From positions 2,984-66,983 of the forward strand of contig CAYJQV010000004.1 in NCBI GenBank assembly GCA_964372395.1: a stretch of DNA of 64,000 bases, read 5' to 3'. Position numbers and translations under genes: made by a program. This document shows, in pieces, positions 20,446-50,178 of the stretch. Position 1 is the first letter of the stretch, and each line of letters starts with the position of its first letter. Below the pieces are notes generated by a model, which made no database searches, was not told where the DNA came from, and was given only the letters and a program-made list of their open reading frames with translations. Source of the DNA: an uncultured Planctomycetia bacterium (lineage in GTDB: Bacteria > Omnitrophota > Gorgyraeia > 1-14-0-20-64-10).

Positions 20446-20769
20446 TCAGCCGGGACCCTCCCTCTCAGGCAGCAGGGTCACCTCCAGGGATGTCGTTTGC
20501 CACCAGATCCAACGGCCGAATGGGCCCGCCCAGGCGACCCAGGCGAACGGCAGGATGCTGGTGGCACGATAGCGGGTATTGCACGACACGCAGTAACAGG
20601 TGAGCCCCATCCGCTGGAGCGGGCCGCGGAGGAAGGTTCGCCGGACCGGCACGGCAGTGGCAAGCCGCCCGCGGCAGGAGGGGCAGAAGCGAGGGGCGGG
20701 GTAGAACTGATAGGCGGGCAGGGGTGCGGTGGGAGGCGCGGGTGGGGGCGGAGACGGGGGCAGCGCCAC
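20446..20769 (-). CDS. small Pro-rich zinc-ribbon membrane protein (DUF983-like), hypothetical
   Basis: GTG start overlapping the stop of the upstream FAD oxidase. CPSC...CVSC zinc ribbon followed by a hydrophobic helix. Strong GC3 coding bias. Lies between two same-strand genes. Confidence 0.4.
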   Translation of the reverse strand: MALPPSPPPPAPPTAPLPAYQFYPAPRFCPSCRGRLATAVPVRRTFLRGPLQRMGLTCYCVSCNTRYRATSILPFAWVAWAGPFGRWIWWQTTSLEVTLLPEREGPG

Positions 20770-22289
20770 TACAGCTCCTGGAGTAGCTCGATGGGAAAGA
20801 TGTTCCCTGGGCTGAGGATCCCCCGGGGATCGAGCCCCTTCTTCACACGCGCCATCTCCTTCAGCCCCTCGCGTCCTACCATCATCTCCAGGTAGGGGAC
20901 GCGCAGCTTTCCGATCCCATGCTCGGCGGAGATCGTACCGCCCAGCTGAATTGCCTTGCGGGCGATCCGCTCGTAGAAGGCAAGGGCACGCTTGAACTCC
21001 TCCTGGGTCGCGGGAAGGAAGTTGGCGTGCAGATGGTTGTCCCCGAGGTGTCCCCAGAGGGTGGCAGCCATCTGCGACTTCGGCAGCTCCTCCAGAGTGA
21101 AGCGGAACATCTCCTCCGCTCCGGGGTCCGGGACCGCGCAGTCGGTCCCGACCTTCCGGAAACCGTTCCGGGCCACCTTCTCGTTGACGAGCACCGGCAG
21201 GTCGTACCGGAATTTCCGGAACTCGCGGTGGTCCTCCGGCCGATGGGAGAACCAGCAGTCGGATGCACTGGCCCCCGCCGACTCGGAGGCCCCCGTCCAT
21301 TCCTGGAGGAGCGCCTCCTGCTCCGATTTGCTGCACTCCTGCTCGAAGAGCAGGGCCGCCCCCGCGTGCTCCGGCGTGTCCGGATGCTTCTCTGAAAGGA
21401 GCCGCAGGGAACAGGAGTCGAAGAACTCCAGGGCACGGGGGGAAAGCCCCATTCCCTGCACCCGTGGGGTCAGACCCTCTGGGGTCTGACCCCAGAGGGT
21501 CTGACCCCATTCTGCCTGGCCCTTGGCCTTGGCTGCGAAGCGGAAACAGTCCAGCTCCGTATTGAAGAAGAGGATCCCGCTGAAGACCGACTCGGGCCTC
21601 GGCAGGACTTTCAGCTCGATCCGGGTCACCACCCCCAGCGTTCCCTCGGATCCCACAAAGAGATCCACAAGATCCATTCCATCCTCGGCGAAATAGCCGG
21701 CCGCGTTCTTGGGGCAGCGGGACCGGTAGGTGGGCACCGGCAGGTCCGCGGAGGCGCCAGCCGGGAAGGGAATCCGGAGGATTCCCTGGCGGGCGGTAAT
21801 CTCTCCGCGCCGGATCTCCAGAACCTCCCCGCTGGCCAGCACGACGCGCAGGGCTTGCACGTACGCGCGGGTCGGGCCGTACTTGAACGACCGTGAACCG
21901 GAGGCGTTGGTGGCCACGTTCCCCCCGAGCGAGGCCTTCCTCTCTCCGGGGTCCGGCGGATAGAAGAGCCCTCGCGGCTCCAGTGCGGCGTCCAGCTCGG
22001 AGAGGGTAACGCCCGGCTCAACGATGGCGATCCCTGCGGGAGAGGTCCTGTCCCACCGGACCTCCAGGATCCGGTTCATCTTCTCCGTGCAGAGGACCAC
22101 GCCCCCTTGAGGGACCCTCGCCCCGGTCAAGCCGGTTCCCGCGCCGGAGATCGTCACGGAAATTCCCTGCTTCTGGAAGGTGCCGAGGAGGGAGGCCACC
22201 TCACCTTCGGAGGTCGGCAGGAAGATCCGGTCCGCCTTCCCGCGAAAATGGGAGGCGTCCCGCAGATGGTCGTCCGCCGCCTGGTTCAC
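20769..22289 (-). CDS. FAD-linked oxidase (GlcD / D-lactate dehydrogenase family) carrying an in-frame repeat-derived insertion
   Basis: FAD-binding PCMH domain (...TISGAGTGLTGARVP...) and a C-terminal FAD-oxidase domain. A 15-aa WGQTLWGQTPEGLTP insert is encoded by the palindromic repeat at 21466-21508. Confidence 0.8.
   Translation of the reverse strand: MNQAADDHLRDASHFRGKADRIFLPTSEGEVASLLGTFQKQGISVTISGAGTGLTGARVPQGGVVLCTEKMNRILEVRWDRTSPAGIAIVEPGVTLSELDAALEPRGLFYPPDPGERKASLGGNVATNASGSRSFKYGPTRAYVQALRVVLASGEVLEIRRGEITARQGILRIPFPAGASADLPVPTYRSRCPKNAAGYFAEDGMDLVDLFVGSEGTLGVVTRIELKVLPRPESVFSGILFFNTELDCFRFAAKAKGQAEWGQTLWGQTPEGLTPRVQGMGLSPRALEFFDSCSLRLLSEKHPDTPEHAGAALLFEQECSKSEQEALLQEWTGASESAGASASDCWFSHRPEDHREFRKFRYDLPVLVNEKVARNGFRKVGTDCAVPDPGAEEMFRFTLEELPKSQMAATLWGHLGDNHLHANFLPATQEEFKRALAFYERIARKAIQLGGTISAEHGIGKLRVPYLEMMVGREGLKEMARVKKGLDPRGILSPGNIFPIELLQEL
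21466..21508. repeat. palindromic repeat element copy A (GGGGTCAGACCC-tct-GGGGTCTGACCCC-agag-GGTCTGACCCC)
   Basis: Perfect 12-bp inverted repeat plus a third arm. Lies inside a CDS and is in frame. Confidence 0.8.
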
Positions 22290-26425: not shown

Positions 26426-27013
26426 CTAGATGAGATACAGCAGTGGAAAGAGAAAGATCCAGACCAGATCCACGAAATGCCAGTACAGCCCGGAGATCTC
26501 GACGATGTGGCTGCGCGCCCTGAAGAAATCACTCCGGAAGGTCGACGCCAGGACCCAGAGATTGGCGATCACCCCGCCGAGCACATGAAGCCCATGGAAG
26601 CCGGTCAGGGTGAAGTAACAGTCCCAGAAGAGGCCTGTTCCGGGCAGATGGCCGTGGGCAAACTTCACCGAGTACTCGTACGCCTTGACCCCGAGGAAAG
26701 CGGCCCCCAGCAGGATCGTCAAGGCGAGGAAGAGCCGCAGCCGGGCCGCGTCCTGCTGATGAACCGCGGCGACACCCAGCGCCATCGTCATCGAGCTCGA
26801 GAGAAGGATGAAGGTGTTGAGGGCCGCCAGCGGGATCTGGAGCTCCTCGCCCGGCTGCGGCCAGTGGGGCAGCCCCGCGCGCAGCACGATGGAGGCCCCG
26901 ATGAGGCCGGTGAAGAACATGACCTCCGAGGCCAGGAAGAGCCACATCCCCAGCTTGGGCGAGGGGATCCCGGTGGAGGTCGCCTCCAATGCATGTGCCG
27001 CTGGCTGCGTCAT
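26426..27013 (-). CDS. ctaE: cytochrome c oxidase subunit III
   Basis: ...GMWLFLASEVMFF...HGLHVLGGV... His-rich TM helices. ATGA overlap with the upstream gene. Confidence 0.85.
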   Translation of the reverse strand: MTQPAAHALEATSTGIPSPKLGMWLFLASEVMFFTGLIGASIVLRAGLPHWPQPGEELQIPLAALNTFILLSSSMTMALGVAAVHQQDAARLRLFLALTILLGAAFLGVKAYEYSVKFAHGHLPGTGLFWDCYFTLTGFHGLHVLGGVIANLWVLASTFRSDFFRARSHIVEISGLYWHFVDLVWIFLFPLLYLI

Positions 27014-28792
27014 GAGATCACCCGATCCAGCGTCAGCGTGGTCAAAAGAACCGGCAGGTACACGACCGAGGCCAGGAAGAGCCGATGGGCGGTCTGTCCT
27101 GAGCGGGCCCGTGCCGTGGCAAGCCCCAGCCCCAGGAAGATGACCCCACCCGCCAGTGCCACCGAAAAGTAGAGCCATCCGGCGAAGCCCAGACCCACCG
27201 GGAGAAGACTGACCGGCAGAAGCGCGGCCAGGTACAGAACCACCTGCCGGAAGGTGAGGCCCCCTTCCGGATCGAGAACCGGCAGCATCCGGAAGCCGGC
27301 CTGCCGGTAGTCGGACCGGAACTGCCAGGCGAGCGCCAGGAAATGAGGGAGCTGCCAGAGGAAGAGGATGGAGAAGAGCCACCAGGCCGGCAGGCCCAGC
27401 ATCCCCCGCGCCGCTGCCCAGCCGATCATGGGTGGCAGGGCGCCCGGCACCGCCCCCAGCAGAGTGCAGAGCGCCGAGCGGCTCTTGAGCGGCGTGTAGA
27501 TGAAGAGGTAGGTGACCAGGGTCAGGGCAGCCAGCGCCGCGGCCAGCAAGTGAACCCCGAAGCTGAGCGTGGCCAGGCCGGCGATCGATAGGGTGACCCC
27601 CACAGCCAACCCTGCTTCCGGTGACACCCTGCCGGAGGGGATGGGGCGCGTGCGGGTGCGAGACATCCGGGAATCGGCCTGCCACTCCATCGCCTGATTG
27701 AGCGCGGCCGCTGCTGCGCCCACCAGCGTGGTTCCGATGAGTGTTGCGATGAACCGCCCCCAGGGGAACGGGCCCACTTGGCCCATGAGGAATCCGAGCA
27801 GAACCGTGAGGACCGACAGGATCGTCAACCGCGGCTTGGTGAGCTCCAGGAGGTCGGCAAGGCGCGCGCCACCGGACTGGCGGCGCGAGAGAGGCGCAGA
27901 GCCGGGCAGGGGGGCGAGAGCCGCGCGCAGGGAGTGGGTGGTGAGAACCGCTGAGGTGGCCAGGAGGAGAGCTCCCACGGCGACATGACCCGTGGCGGTG
28001 AACGGATTCGAGCCCTGGAGGAAGGTCAGGAGACCCAGGAGGATTTGCAGCGGAACGAGCAGAAGGAGAATCCGCGCCGGCCCGACGTATTCGGGCCGGT
28101 CGGAGTAGTCCCTGAGACAGACGAAGGCGGCGCGCAGGAGAACCGCCCCGGCCAGGATCGCTCCGGTTCCGTGCGCCGCCAAGAGCGGGGCGCTCCATCC
28201 GAGATGCCGCAGGGCCGCACCTAGCAGGAGCTGAAGGTAAACCAGCGCGGTCATCGAGAGGAACAACCCCCAAGGCACGCGTCGAGGGGTCAGACCCTCT
28301 GGGGTCAGACCCTGGAGGGTCTGACCCCAGAGGGTGTTCCAGCCGGGGCCGAGCACTGTGGCGAGGACTGCCAACAGCGCAAAGAAGGTCTGTCCCAGCG
28401 TTGCATGGGCGATGGAGATTGGCGCCGGCAGGAGGAGCAGCACCGTCAATCCCCCCAGGATCCCCTGCAGGACCACGGCGGCGAATGCCGCCAGCGCCAG
28501 CCGGCGAACCCAGCGGCGCTTCTCAGCGGCCAGGATGGCGAGGGTGAGCAGCAAGGTCAACAGCCCCACACCCGCGGCAACCAGGCGGTGGGTGTGCTCG
28601 TAACGGATGCCGCCCACCATCGGGGGGAACAGGGAGCCGTACGAAAGGGGCCAGTCCGGGACGGCGAGCCCGGAGCCGGTGGAGGTGACCAGCCCGCCTG
28701 CGATGATCAGAAGAAAGCCAGCCGCCGCGGTGAACCAGGCGAAAACCTGAAGGGGTCTGACCCCAAGAGGCTTTTCGGGGTCAGACCCCATG
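27010..28792 (-). CDS. fused haem A synthase (CtaA/COX15, N-terminal) / protohaem IX farnesyltransferase (CtaB/COX10, C-terminal); carries one internal and one N-terminal palindromic-repeat insertion
   Basis: N-terminus ...GGLVTSTGSGLAVPDWPLSYG... is CtaA. The C-terminal half has the UbiA-family motif NQAMEWQADSRMSRTRTRP, which is CtaB. The start is placed at the ATG inside the repeat (28790-28792), and the true start is uncertain. An in-frame LWGQTLQGLTPEGLTP insert is present. Confidence 0.75.
28286..28328. repeat. palindromic repeat element copy B (GGGGTCAGACCC x2 direct, then GGGTCTGACCCC)
   Basis: Inside the ctaA-ctaB CDS, in frame. Confidence 0.8.
28752..28789. repeat. palindromic repeat element copy C (GGGGTCTGACCCC-N12-GGGGTCAGACCCC) at the ctaD/ctaA junction
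   Basis: Contains the ctaD stop codon (TGA inside GGGGTCTGA on the minus strand) and a candidate ctaA start ATG. Confidence 0.75.
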
Positions 28793-30526
28793 GGGTTTCT
28801 CCGTCTGCAGCTGCCAGTCCCGTCTTGCCCCTGGCACGGAGTACTCGTATGGCCCGCAGTGGACGGTGGGTGTGGTGGCGAAGTTCCCGTGGGGCGGAGG
28901 AGAAGGGACGGTCCACTCCAGTGTCGTCGCCTCCCAGGGATTCTCATTCACCCTCTTGCCGCGGAAGAGAGATGAGAAGAAGTTATAGACGAAGAGAAGC
29001 TGCGACGCGAACAGGCAGAAGGCGGCCACACTCATCATCCGGTTCAACCCCACCAGATTCGCCAGGGCCGGATACTGCGTGTAGTCGTAGATCCGCCGCG
29101 GCATGCCGCCCAGGCCCAGGATGAACATCGGGAACATGACCGCATTGAAGAGCAGGAAGGAGAGCCAGAAATGGATCTTCCCCAGCCGCTCGTTCATTGC
29201 GCGGCCGAACATCTTGGGGAACCAGTAGATGATGCCGGCGAAGGCGCCGAAGAGGGAGCCGCCGAAGAGGACGTAGTGGATGTGCCCGACGACGAAGTAG
29301 GTGTCGTGCAGGTACATGTCCACCGGGGTGGAGCCGAGGAAGATGCCGGTGAGGCCCCCGATGATGAACATCGAGATGAAGCCCAGCGCGTGGAGCATCG
29401 GCGTGGTCAGCCGGATGGATCCGCGCCAGAGGGTGCCCAGCCAGCTGAACACCTTGACGCCGGTGGGGACCGCCACCGCCATGGTGGAGATCATGAAGGT
29501 GGTTCCCAGGACCGGATTCATCCCGGCGTGGAACATGTGGTGCGCCCAGACGAGGAAACCGACCGCCCCGATCCCCACGGAGGCGTAGGCGATCGCCCTG
29601 TAGCCGAAGAGCGGCTTCCGGGAGAAGTTGGGCAGGATGTCGGAGATAAAGCCCATCGCCGGCAGGATCATGATATAGACCGCCGGGTGGGAGTAGAACC
29701 AGAAGAGGTGCTGCCAGAGGACCGCCTGCCCGCCGGCGTAGGGAAGGGGATTGCCGTCAACGATCATCCCGGCCGGCAGGAAGAAGCTGGTCCCCAGCGT
29801 CCGATCCAGGAGCAGCAGGATGAGGGCTGAGGCGAGGACCGGCGTCGCCAGCAGGGTGAGCACCGCCGTCGTGAAGAGGGCCCAGATGGAGATCGGCAGA
29901 CGATGGAAGCTCATCCCCGGGGCGCGGTGATTGACGATGGTGGCGATGTAGTTCACCGACCCGAGGATGTTGGAGAACCCCAGCAGGATGAGCCCCGCCG
30001 TCCAGAAGGTCTGGCCCGCCCCCATCGTCTCCTTCGCCCCGGACAGCGGCGGGTAGGCGGTCCAGCCGGCGGCGGCGGCCCCCCCCTCCGCCCAGAACCC
30101 GAGCATGACGGTGATCGCCGCAGGCGGGAAGAGCCAGTAGGAGAGCATGTTGAGCCGCGGGAACGCCATGTCGGGCGCGCCCACTTTAAGCGGGATGAGG
30201 TAATTGCCGAAGGCGCCCGCCAGGAGCGGGATGATCCCGAAGAAGATCATCGCCGAGCCGTGCATGGTGAAGAGGACGTTGTAATACTCCGGCACCATGT
30301 AGCCGCCCGGCATCCCCTCCGGGGCGAACTTCTCCATGAAGGGCAGCGGTGTCCCCGGCCAGCCGAGCTGCCAGCGCATCAGCATGGCCAGCACGCCGCC
30401 GAAGAGCATGAAGAGCAGCGAGCTGAAGAGGAACTGGATGCCGATGATCTTATGGTCGGTCGAGAAGATGTACCTCCTCAGAAAGGGGACTGTCCCCCCC
30501 CGCCCCGGATGCGCTGCTTCACTCAT
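28781..30526 (-). CDS. ctaD: cytochrome c oxidase subunit I
   Basis: 581 aa with haem-copper oxidase His ligands throughout. The C-terminal ...KPHGV and the stop are encoded by the palindromic repeat. Confidence 0.9.
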   Translation of the reverse strand: MSEAAHPGRGGTVPFLRRYIFSTDHKIIGIQFLFSSLLFMLFGGVLAMLMRWQLGWPGTPLPFMEKFAPEGMPGGYMVPEYYNVLFTMHGSAMIFFGIIPLLAGAFGNYLIPLKVGAPDMAFPRLNMLSYWLFPPAAITVMLGFWAEGGAAAAGWTAYPPLSGAKETMGAGQTFWTAGLILLGFSNILGSVNYIATIVNHRAPGMSFHRLPISIWALFTTAVLTLLATPVLASALILLLLDRTLGTSFFLPAGMIVDGNPLPYAGGQAVLWQHLFWFYSHPAVYIMILPAMGFISDILPNFSRKPLFGYRAIAYASVGIGAVGFLVWAHHMFHAGMNPVLGTTFMISTMAVAVPTGVKVFSWLGTLWRGSIRLTTPMLHALGFISMFIIGGLTGIFLGSTPVDMYLHDTYFVVGHIHYVLFGGSLFGAFAGIIYWFPKMFGRAMNERLGKIHFWLSFLLFNAVMFPMFILGLGGMPRRIYDYTQYPALANLVGLNRMMSVAAFCLFASQLLFVYNFFSSLFRGKRVNENPWEATTLEWTVPSPPPHGNFATTPTVHCGPYEYSVPGARRDWQLQTEKPHGV

Positions 30527-44840: not shown

Positions 44841-44880
44841 TTCCCCCGGAGGTCAGACCCCCAGGGGGACAGGTCCCTTA
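44841..44880. repeat. degenerate copy D of the palindromic repeat (GGTCAGACCCCC-AGGGGGACAGGTCCC)
   Basis: Intergenic. Partial match to the GGGGTCAGACCC family. Confidence 0.4.
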
Positions 44881-44970
44881 TTTGTGGTAGCATGGGCGCT
44901 GGCGGCGGCGTGGCTGGCCCTCTTCGTCGCGGGCGGGCCGGACGCAGAGGCGGCAGGGACCTCGCCCAGG

Positions 44971-49767: not shown

Positions 49768-50106
49768 ATGGCACGCAACCGATCTTGGATGCTCGTTGTG
49801 ATCTTGACGGGGATGGTGGCACTCGCCTCGGCGGGGGTCTCCTCTGCGGAGGAGGCGACCGCCTGGAACAAGCTGCAGCGGGGCGCGGTCAACACGACCA
49901 CCGGATGGCTGGAGATGATGGTTCAGCCGGTCGAGGGAGCGAAGGCCGAGTCCCCCTTCATGGGGGTGGTCACCGGCTTTGGGAAGGGGATCCTGCTGGG
50001 ACTGCAGCGGACCGGCCTGGGACTGGCGGACAGCCTCTCCTTTCCGGTCGGGCCGTACGATCGGCCCGCCATGGAGCCGGAGACCCTCTTCGGCCCGGTC
50101 AAGTAA
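49768..50106 (+). CDS. exosortase system-associated protein, TIGR04073 family
   Basis: 112 aa, signal peptide. ...GAVNTTTGWLEMM... is the family core. Confidence 0.6.
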   Translation: MARNRSWMLVVILTGMVALASAGVSSAEEATAWNKLQRGAVNTTTGWLEMMVQPVEGAKAESPFMGVVTGFGKGILLGLQRTGLGLADSLSFPVGPYDRPAMEPETLFGPVK

Positions 50107-50139: not shown

Positions 50140-50178
50140 GGGGTCAGACCCTCAAGGGGTCTGACCCCGTTTTTTCGG
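50140..50178 (+). terminator. Rho-independent terminator formed by palindromic repeat copy E (GGGGTCAGACCC-tcaa-GGGGTCTGACCCC + GTTTTTTCGG)
   Basis: Perfect 12-bp stem, 4-nt loop and a U-run. Confidence 0.8.

Follow-up and report, generated by a model that had tools for sequence, protein, structure and literature searches.

How a short palindromic DNA repeat came to lie, in frame, inside the gene of a conserved respiratory membrane enzyme is the question raised by the 64,000-nucleotide stretch that we analysed (hereafter the window; contig CAYJQV010000004.1 of assembly GCA_964372395.1, from an uncultured bacterium). The gene in question, ctaA-ctaB, encodes a fusion of haem A synthase with haem O synthase on the minus strand, and the repeat stands in its CtaA half. 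Taking all lines of evidence together, we consider it probable that this element is a copy of a dispersed family of GC-rich palindromes, similar to the repetitive extragenic palindromes (REP) and their hairpin-forming doublets (REPINs) of other bacteria, and that it is carried as a tolerated passenger.

The original prediction had described an in-frame insertion of a palindromic repeat of the window at 28286-28328, made of two direct units and one inverted unit of GGGGTCAGACCC. Both the units and the reading frame were recovered as described: the two direct 12-nt units occupy 28286-28297 and 28301-28312 on the plus strand, the reverse complement lies at 28317-28328, and all match exactly. The ctaA copy is larger than first described, since these 12-nt units sit within a perfect inverted repeat whose 20-nt arms (28294-28313 and 28316-28335) are 100% complementary around a 2-nt centre; in single-stranded DNA or in mRNA, 28294-28335 forms a hairpin of 19-20 bp, and the gene-strand RNA of the copy has a folding energy of -43.5 kcal/mol (z = -6.2 relative to dinucleotide shuffles). 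The leftmost unit is cut down to ACCC. The lineage-specific segment measures 57 nt (28279..28335, minus strand) and makes up codons 153-171, TLWGQTLQGLTPEGLTPRR; read in frame, the copy gives residues 152-172 of the 593-aa product, NTLWGQTLQGLTPEGLTPRRV. The GC content at third codon positions (GC3) is 0.68 in this segment versus 0.82 in the whole ctaA-ctaB gene. No U-run follows the ctaA copy, the next sequence being CUGACCCCUCGACG, and a function as intrinsic terminator was ruled out for this copy because no U-tract stands behind the hairpin. No Rfam family reached its gathering score anywhere in the window, a permissive scan of 28100-28900 returned only sub-threshold generic-hairpin matches to animal microRNA models, and a literal search of the literature for the 12-mers matched three papers only, all of them eukaryotic and unrelated.

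The comparison with orthologues indicates that the segment is an acquisition specific to this lineage, the closest relatives having no homologous sequence at the insert. Where the window has 57 nt (28279-28335; protein P0001, linker peptide GPGWNTLWGQTLQGLTPEGLTPRRVPWGLF), the 92% identical protein P0002 of locus L001 has 15 nt (linker SPGWKGSQAEAPCGLF), and the 81% identical P0003 of locus L002 has 39 unrelated nt (linker SPGWKSSQDQTASARNGHAPWGLL); neither locus carries repeat units at this position or in its neighbourhood. Compared with L001, the window has gained a net 42 nt, that is, 14 codons. Measured against the empty sites of L001 and L002, no target-site duplication is present beside the insert; because of this and of the truncated leftmost unit, the event against L001 looks, from the aligned sequences, as if 57 nt had been inserted in place of 15 nt. 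The linker that received it is the most variable stretch, in length and in sequence, of the 22 aligned fusion orthologues, one of which (P0049) carries about 40 extra residues there. Among the 120 homologues listed, repeat-encoded peptides occur only in P0001 and in P0035, a 62% identical protein from JACPXU01 that falls in a different clade of the neighbour-joining tree. The insert of P0035 consists of two units (L003:7346-7373, RWGQTPRGLTPP) and begins four codons upstream of the window's site in the same linker; given the other clade and the shifted start, the sequences argue that this insertion is independent of that in the window. Since the linker is so variable, a second insertion there is best taken as a sign that the site tolerates inserts, although the repeat may also target the CtaA linker.

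The position of the insert in the protein differs from what had been proposed. It had been placed in the loop where type-1 CtaA proteins carry their Cys pair, possibly on the periplasmic side, and neither idea holds. In the profile alignment with 6A2J, the first Cys pair falls in extracellular loop (ECL) 1, where GCGRQWPLCHG lies opposite the window's GLAVPDWPLSYG (residues ~40-50), and the second in ECL3, after transmembrane helix (TM) 5, whereas the insert lies between TM4 and TM5. The AlphaFold model (mean confidence score, pLDDT, 83.9) gives TM4 at residues 123-146, a short helix at 149-160, a coil at 161-173 with pLDDT of about 50-58 (below 50 for 161-167), TM5 at 174-197 and an ECL3 of three residues only, 198-200. 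Alignment and model together place the insert in the TM4-TM5 linker, or intracellular loop 2 (ICL2; 28273..28353, minus strand, codons 147-173), at the predicted seam of two homologous four-helix bundles. It shares its side of the membrane with the strongly basic TM2-TM3 loop EKRRWVRR and is therefore predicted to be cytoplasmic. The nomenclature of the loops and the notion of "long ICL2" variants follow PMC8239418, and the long-ICL2 haem A synthases of its Table 1 display a natural variation in TM4-TM5 length that is consistent with tolerance of an insert; those variants are family traits of unknown origin, whereas here the extra residues trace to a specific repeat insertion. As a side observation, the CtaA half (27757-28791) has a single Cys, C225, hence no Cys pair of either kind, and with no ECL1 pair and a three-residue ECL3 its loops resemble those of the Cys-less type 0/type 2 enzymes rather than type 1 (PMC8239418).

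The host gene is functional. Its minus-strand open reading frame (ORF) spans 27010..28947, and public data call the start at ATG 28791, which gives a gene at 27010..28791 and a product of 593 aa (P0001) with the domains PF02628 (COX15-CtaA) and PF01040 (UbiA). The sequence matches the haem A synthase structures 8AW5 (Aquifex) and 6A2J (B. subtilis); in the predicted fold, the N-terminal half is similar to these two and the C-terminal half to UbiA-type prenyltransferases. The gene lies in an aa3-type oxidase operon between ctaD (COX1) on one side and ctaE (COX3) with COX4/SCO1 genes on the other. Decay to a pseudogene, which would have refuted the original prediction, is contradicted by an unbroken ORF of 593 codons, by the retention of all family-invariant residues including the conserved His, and by ratios of nonsynonymous to synonymous substitution (dN/dS) of 0.22 against L001 (0.29 in the CtaA half, 0.13 in CtaB) and 0.20 against L002 (0.23 in the CtaA half), all of which point to purifying selection. 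Because the closest relatives work without the insert and selection on the gene is intact, the ~14 extra Gly/Thr/Pro/Leu-rich residues, in a cytoplasmic loop of low model confidence, are most likely a neutral passenger. An effect of the mRNA hairpin on ribosome transit or mRNA decay is speculative.

The ctaA copy does not stand alone in the window. The repeat unit is a 13-mer, GGGGTC[A/T]GACCC[C/T], itself near-palindromic, whose central A/T base flips between inverted partners. Units with at most one mismatch number 15 in the window, versus 1.24 expected and with none of 100 shuffles reaching 15; four clusters hold ten units in the 64 kb, versus ~0.27 units expected from base composition. Adjacent units are 15-16 nt apart, except for one pair at 25 nt, and the hairpin arms of 20-21 nt are perfectly complementary, with folding energies of -33 to -47 kcal/mol and z from -5.3 to -8.1. 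Depending on frame, identical DNA yields GSDP, GQTP/GLTP or GVRP; the GQT/GLT and GSDP frames have no stop on either strand, and the third meets the TGA of GGGGTCTGACCCC, the T-centred unit. Frame-dependent peptides in unrelated proteins, along with intergenic hairpins, argue for a repeat at the level of DNA and not for a peptide motif.

A second in-frame copy (21466..21508), a 43-nt perfect palindrome of three units read as QAEWGQTLWGQTPEGLTPRVQ, lies in a minus-strand gene at 20769..22289 with the domains PF01565 and PF02913, for which FAD-linked oxidase and D-lactate-dehydrogenase-like are alternative labels; an orthologue with 81% identity lacks its 20-aa insert. The original prediction counted the ctaA copy as the second respiratory gene of the window colonised in frame. 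The other in-frame copy is indeed there, but its host, a FAD-linked oxidase, does not belong to the respiratory core. In P0243, a relative of this oxidase with 86% identity, a different tandem insertion, AQRLALAEAPPRAP in two copies, occurs at the same place.

The third copy (28752..28789; 13-bp stem, 12-nt loop, -33 kcal/mol) straddles the junction between ctaD and ctaA. The TGA stop of ctaD (28781-28783) falls inside its first unit, and the ATG of ctaA (28789-28791) adjoins the element. L001 has at this junction a plain ATGA overlap with no repeat, and its CtaA begins MRLLAQ versus MGSDPEKPLGVRPLQ in the window. The copy has turned the C-terminus of ctaD into ...KPHGV* and gives ctaA its only plausible in-frame start (MGSDPEKPLGVRP...). 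As the closest orthologue has the simple overlap instead, the sequences indicate that the current stop/start pair was made by the repeat, and in this respect the junction copy is probably of more consequence than the one inside ctaA. The fourth copy (50140..50168, plus strand) is intergenic: it starts 33 nt past the stop of the ORF 49768..50106(+) and ends 24 nt ahead of the next GTG start, and with a hairpin followed by TTTTTT it looks, in form, like an intrinsic terminator.

The repeat is by no means confined to this organism. A two-unit pattern scan of species-representative genomes, in which the 15-nt spacing was imposed by the pattern, returned at least 109 loci, to be taken as evidence of presence across phyla and not of abundance or of unbiased spacing. 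Among the matches listed, the doublet GGGGTCWGACCCC-NN-GGGGTCWGACCCC occurs in Marinobacter, Oxalobacteraceae, Gaiellaceae and other Actinomycetota, Gemmatimonas, Acidobacteriota and Scopulibacillus, as well as in metagenome-assembled genomes (MAGs) labelled Omnitrophota or Planctomycetia, which are relatives of the window's organism by CtaAB and FAD-oxidase similarity; many contigs of one related MAG, JACPXU01, carry it. The listed carriers (L007-L115) are isolates, complete genomes and MAGs from Pseudomonadota, Actinomycetota, Acidobacteriota and Gemmatimonadota, plus one Bacillota isolate and the Omnitrophota- or Planctomycetia-labelled MAGs just named. Clusters comprise two to five units at a fixed 15-nt pitch. 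The flanks are not conserved between lineages, and in the relatives of the window's organism the palindrome extends as CCTRACG...CGTYAGG. By a heuristic based on ORFs and GC3, not on gene calls, 17 of the 141 listed clusters (12%) lie in frame within long coding ORFs and about 88% outside long high-GC3 ORFs. None of 2.9 million viral contigs contains the doublet, so that a phage vector is unsupported; a 36-nt consensus had no blastn match in plasmids, a weak test because the spacer varies.

Several of the in-frame cases deserve description on their own account. In the related MAG, L017:2411-3598 encodes a queuine tRNA-ribosyltransferase, Tgt (PF01702, E = 2.9e-145), with an in-frame doublet, KNLTGSDPAGSDPKRP, in the middle of the protein and a second doublet that forms its N-terminus. 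At L017:3570-3598 (JACPXU010000033.1), the junction string AAACCCCATGGGGTCTGA is the same as at 28777-28800 of the window and joins two unrelated genes: a hexapeptide-repeat protein ending ...KPHGV* and Tgt starting MGSDP.... Judged from these two strings, the recurrence suggests either a portable junction or a preference of insertion for start/stop overlaps. In two Marinobacter species (L061:4561-6198 and L072:1-1635), a 545-aa protein of the beta-CASP/metallo-beta-lactamase RNase type contains two to four in-frame doublets (GSDPxGSDP), at corresponding positions in both species and inside longer inserted segments.

What could mobilise such a repeat? Among the 109 loci listed as bearing it, a Y1/HUH transposase gene stands near the repeats at L071 only. 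The record of L071 has the catalytic core masked by Ns, and Pfam gave nothing; the unmasked, near-identical copy on L116 encodes P0121, a 205-aa protein with PF01797, an HVHLIL motif and RHSSY. On these gammaproteobacterial contigs, the gene (L116:2825-3630; L071:895-1486) has exact GGGGTCWGACCCC doublets on both sides, and further single units lie upstream of it and inside it (AMGSDPNQ). The C-terminal fragment gave a partial match, at E = 2.8e-4 and well below the curated cut-off, to the NCBIfam model REP_Tyr_transpos for REP-associated tyrosine transposases (RAYTs). None of 80 metagenomic relatives of P0121 (34-52% identity) has the exact unit, and many are flanked by hairpins with the related cores GGGGACAGACCCC, GGGGTCAGAGTGA, GGGGTCAGACTG and GGGGACAGTCCCC, which share the half-site GGGG[T/A]CAGA. 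In the pattern described by Bertels and Rainey (PMC3337134), inverted REP doublets form hairpins and RAYT genes are flanked by their own REPs; the location of the P0121 gene between exact doublets and the hairpin-flanked relatives fit the REPIN/RAYT definitions of that work. By extension, mobilisation by a RAYT may be presumed in the window's own genome.

Structurally and genetically, the repeat is closest to REP/REPIN elements. With the REP/REPIN-RAYT systems of P. fluorescens (GI-GIII) and of E. coli (REP and bacterial interspersed mosaic elements, BIME), it shares short GC-rich palindromic cores, the P. fluorescens REP core GGGGGCTTGCCCCC (PMC3337134) comparing with GGGGTCAGACCCC here; doublets in inverted orientation, able to fold into hairpins; copies that are dispersed and, over all listed loci and by the heuristic above, lie largely outside genes, some of them terminator-like; and, in two contigs (L071, L116), a Y1/HUH transposase gene flanked by repeats. 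It differs in the spacer of the doublet, 2 nt here (15-nt pitch) and longer in REPINs, in the presence of the same core in many phyla, and in that in-frame intragenic copies are not rare (~12% by the above heuristic).

A number of points speak against the favoured reading of the element. The unit of 13 nt is self-palindromic and much below the usual length of a REPIN. Classical REPs of enterobacteria and pseudomonads have a head of the GTAG/GTGG type next to the palindrome, and no GTAG-type head stands beside the repeat here. A tblastn search of the window and of 115 loci, with 120 Y1 transposases as queries, gave a match in L071 only; there is no RAYT gene in the 64-kb window or at the 108 other repeat-bearing loci listed. 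An identical 13-mer in several phyla is odd for REPIN-RAYT systems, which are vertically inherited. Of the four clusters of the window, two are intragenic and one sits on a gene junction, which is a poor fit with the label "extragenic". The replacement without target-site duplication leaves no clean cut-and-paste footprint, and the neutrality of the insert is deduced from its position and from selection statistics.

Other known elements compare less well. The Rickettsia palindromic elements (RPEs; Ogata et al. 2000) are presented in the account given by PMC10969869 as selfish palindromic DNA that has entered conserved housekeeping genes in frame, the added peptide segment falling at positions compatible with fold and function. 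The outcome in CtaA, the FAD oxidase, Tgt and the beta-CASP RNase is the same as in that account. As there described, RPEs are ~100-150 bp long, occur in Rickettsia only and code for a conserved peptide of 30-50 aa, whereas the element here spans 43-57 nt (14-20 aa), does not resemble RPEs in sequence, gives frame-dependent peptides and resides in a host other than Rickettsia. Because size, sequence and host differ from those of that description, the repeat is not a member of the RPEs, which are its closest functional analogue. [quoted passage not shown] MITEs usually exceed 100 bp and are marked by terminal inverted repeats and target-site duplications; no duplication is present here. The attC sites of integrons, suggested by the CTAACG...CGTTAG flanks seen in some relatives, were set aside on size and for lack of a cassette context. 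The terminal inverted repeats of the Tn3 family begin GGGGTCTGAC; a relation to them was dropped, since the similarity spans 10 nt only and the element is far shorter than the 38-bp repeat.

The scenario that we favour may be worded as follows. The family would consist of inverted doublets or triplets of GGGGTC[A/T]GACCC[C/T] with a pitch of ~15 nt, and one copy (3.3 units, ~50 nt) would have entered ctaA-ctaB after the lineage split from its closest sequenced relatives. Its survival could be put down to a net change that is a multiple of three (+42 nt), to its being read in one of two stop-free frames, and to its landing in a poorly conserved, presumably disordered cytoplasmic ICL2 that joins the four-helix bundles. 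By analogy with REPINs, a HUH/Y1 transposase of the RAYT type would spread the element by acting on its hairpin in single-stranded form. It is tempting to go further and to regard the doublet at 15-nt pitch as a cross-phylum, "coding-competent" REPIN-like family served by one RAYT clade and routinely colonising genes and gene junctions. Coding competence would follow from a pitch that is a multiple of three and from two of three frames being open on both strands; the repeat also contains a TGA of its own, and an ATG is found repeatedly at its edge. We hold this broader proposal to be possible and, as things stand, doubtful.

A different origin would dispense with the transposase altogether, the copies, that in ctaA included, arising by host processes: expansion by slipped-strand or template-switch events, gene conversion, or illegitimate recombination from other copies. 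The replacement of 15 nt by 57 nt with no target-site duplication, the truncation of the leftmost ctaA unit to ACCC, the variation from two to five units at a fixed pitch and the lack of a RAYT near the 108 other listed loci would all suit such a process. Yet slippage cannot seed a first copy, and L001 and L002 have no seed sequence; identical units stand at unlinked loci and in other phyla; and doublets flank the Y1 transposase gene in two contigs, with related hairpins flanking its relatives. On balance, we regard an origin by host processes as unlikely.

One may also wonder whether the insert was kept because it is useful, either as an RNA hairpin (a ribosome pause between the two halves of CtaA, protection of the mRNA, an RNase site) or as a protein loop that binds, for example, CtaB or Cox1. 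The arms have stayed 100% complementary despite a dS of 0.2 to the nearest relative, a distant relative (P0035) acquired its own insertion in the same linker, the junction copy provides a working stop and start codon, and the intergenic copy is terminator-like. However, the closest relatives do without the insert, tolerance of a hypervariable linker alone would give recurrence, the peptide encoded by the same DNA varies from host to host, the loop is modelled with low confidence, and Rfam offered nothing beyond sub-threshold generic hairpins; retention for a benefit seems improbable to us. Finally, although some library or assembly errors create palindromes and the source is a MAG, an assembly or sequencing artefact or a decaying pseudogene is effectively refuted: the gene DNA is identical in three assemblies, that of the MAG (contig of GCA_947085785.1) and those of two sequencing runs assembled independently, so that an error of the assembler is excluded, the family occurs in isolate and complete genomes too, and the ORF is intact, with the conserved His and invariant residues in place and a dN/dS of ~0.2.

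The reading of the ctaA element as a tolerated copy of a REP/REPIN-like family bears on several matters. The best documented cases in which palindromic selfish DNA has colonised conserved genes in frame come from Rickettsia; the outcome seen here is the same, in an uncultured free-living lineage, in Marinobacter and in other genomes, with a much smaller REP-like unit, and a respiratory membrane enzyme is among the proteins affected. For the biology of CtaA, ICL2, at the seam of the ancient four-TM duplication, is marked as insertion-tolerant. For annotation, GSDP, GQTP and GLTP runs and some start and stop codons should be viewed as by-products of a DNA repeat. If both the RAYT link and the spread across phyla are true, the repeat would be a useful system for following the entry of REPINs into coding sequence. 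If the family is coding-competent, it would supply new loops to conserved proteins and new stop/start pairs between cistrons, and would be a general, RPE-like source of new protein and operon features outside Rickettsia, of which the KPHGV*/MGSDP junction and the repeated insertions in the CtaA linker would be examples.

A last trace of the family may be found away from the four clusters. A degenerate single unit, GAGGTCAGACCC (44849..44860, plus strand), lies in a G/C-rich palindromic context and is followed, within 44849-44883, by CCAGGGGGACAGGTCCC; it may represent a decayed or related hairpin of the GGGGACAG type found beside some of the RAYT relatives.

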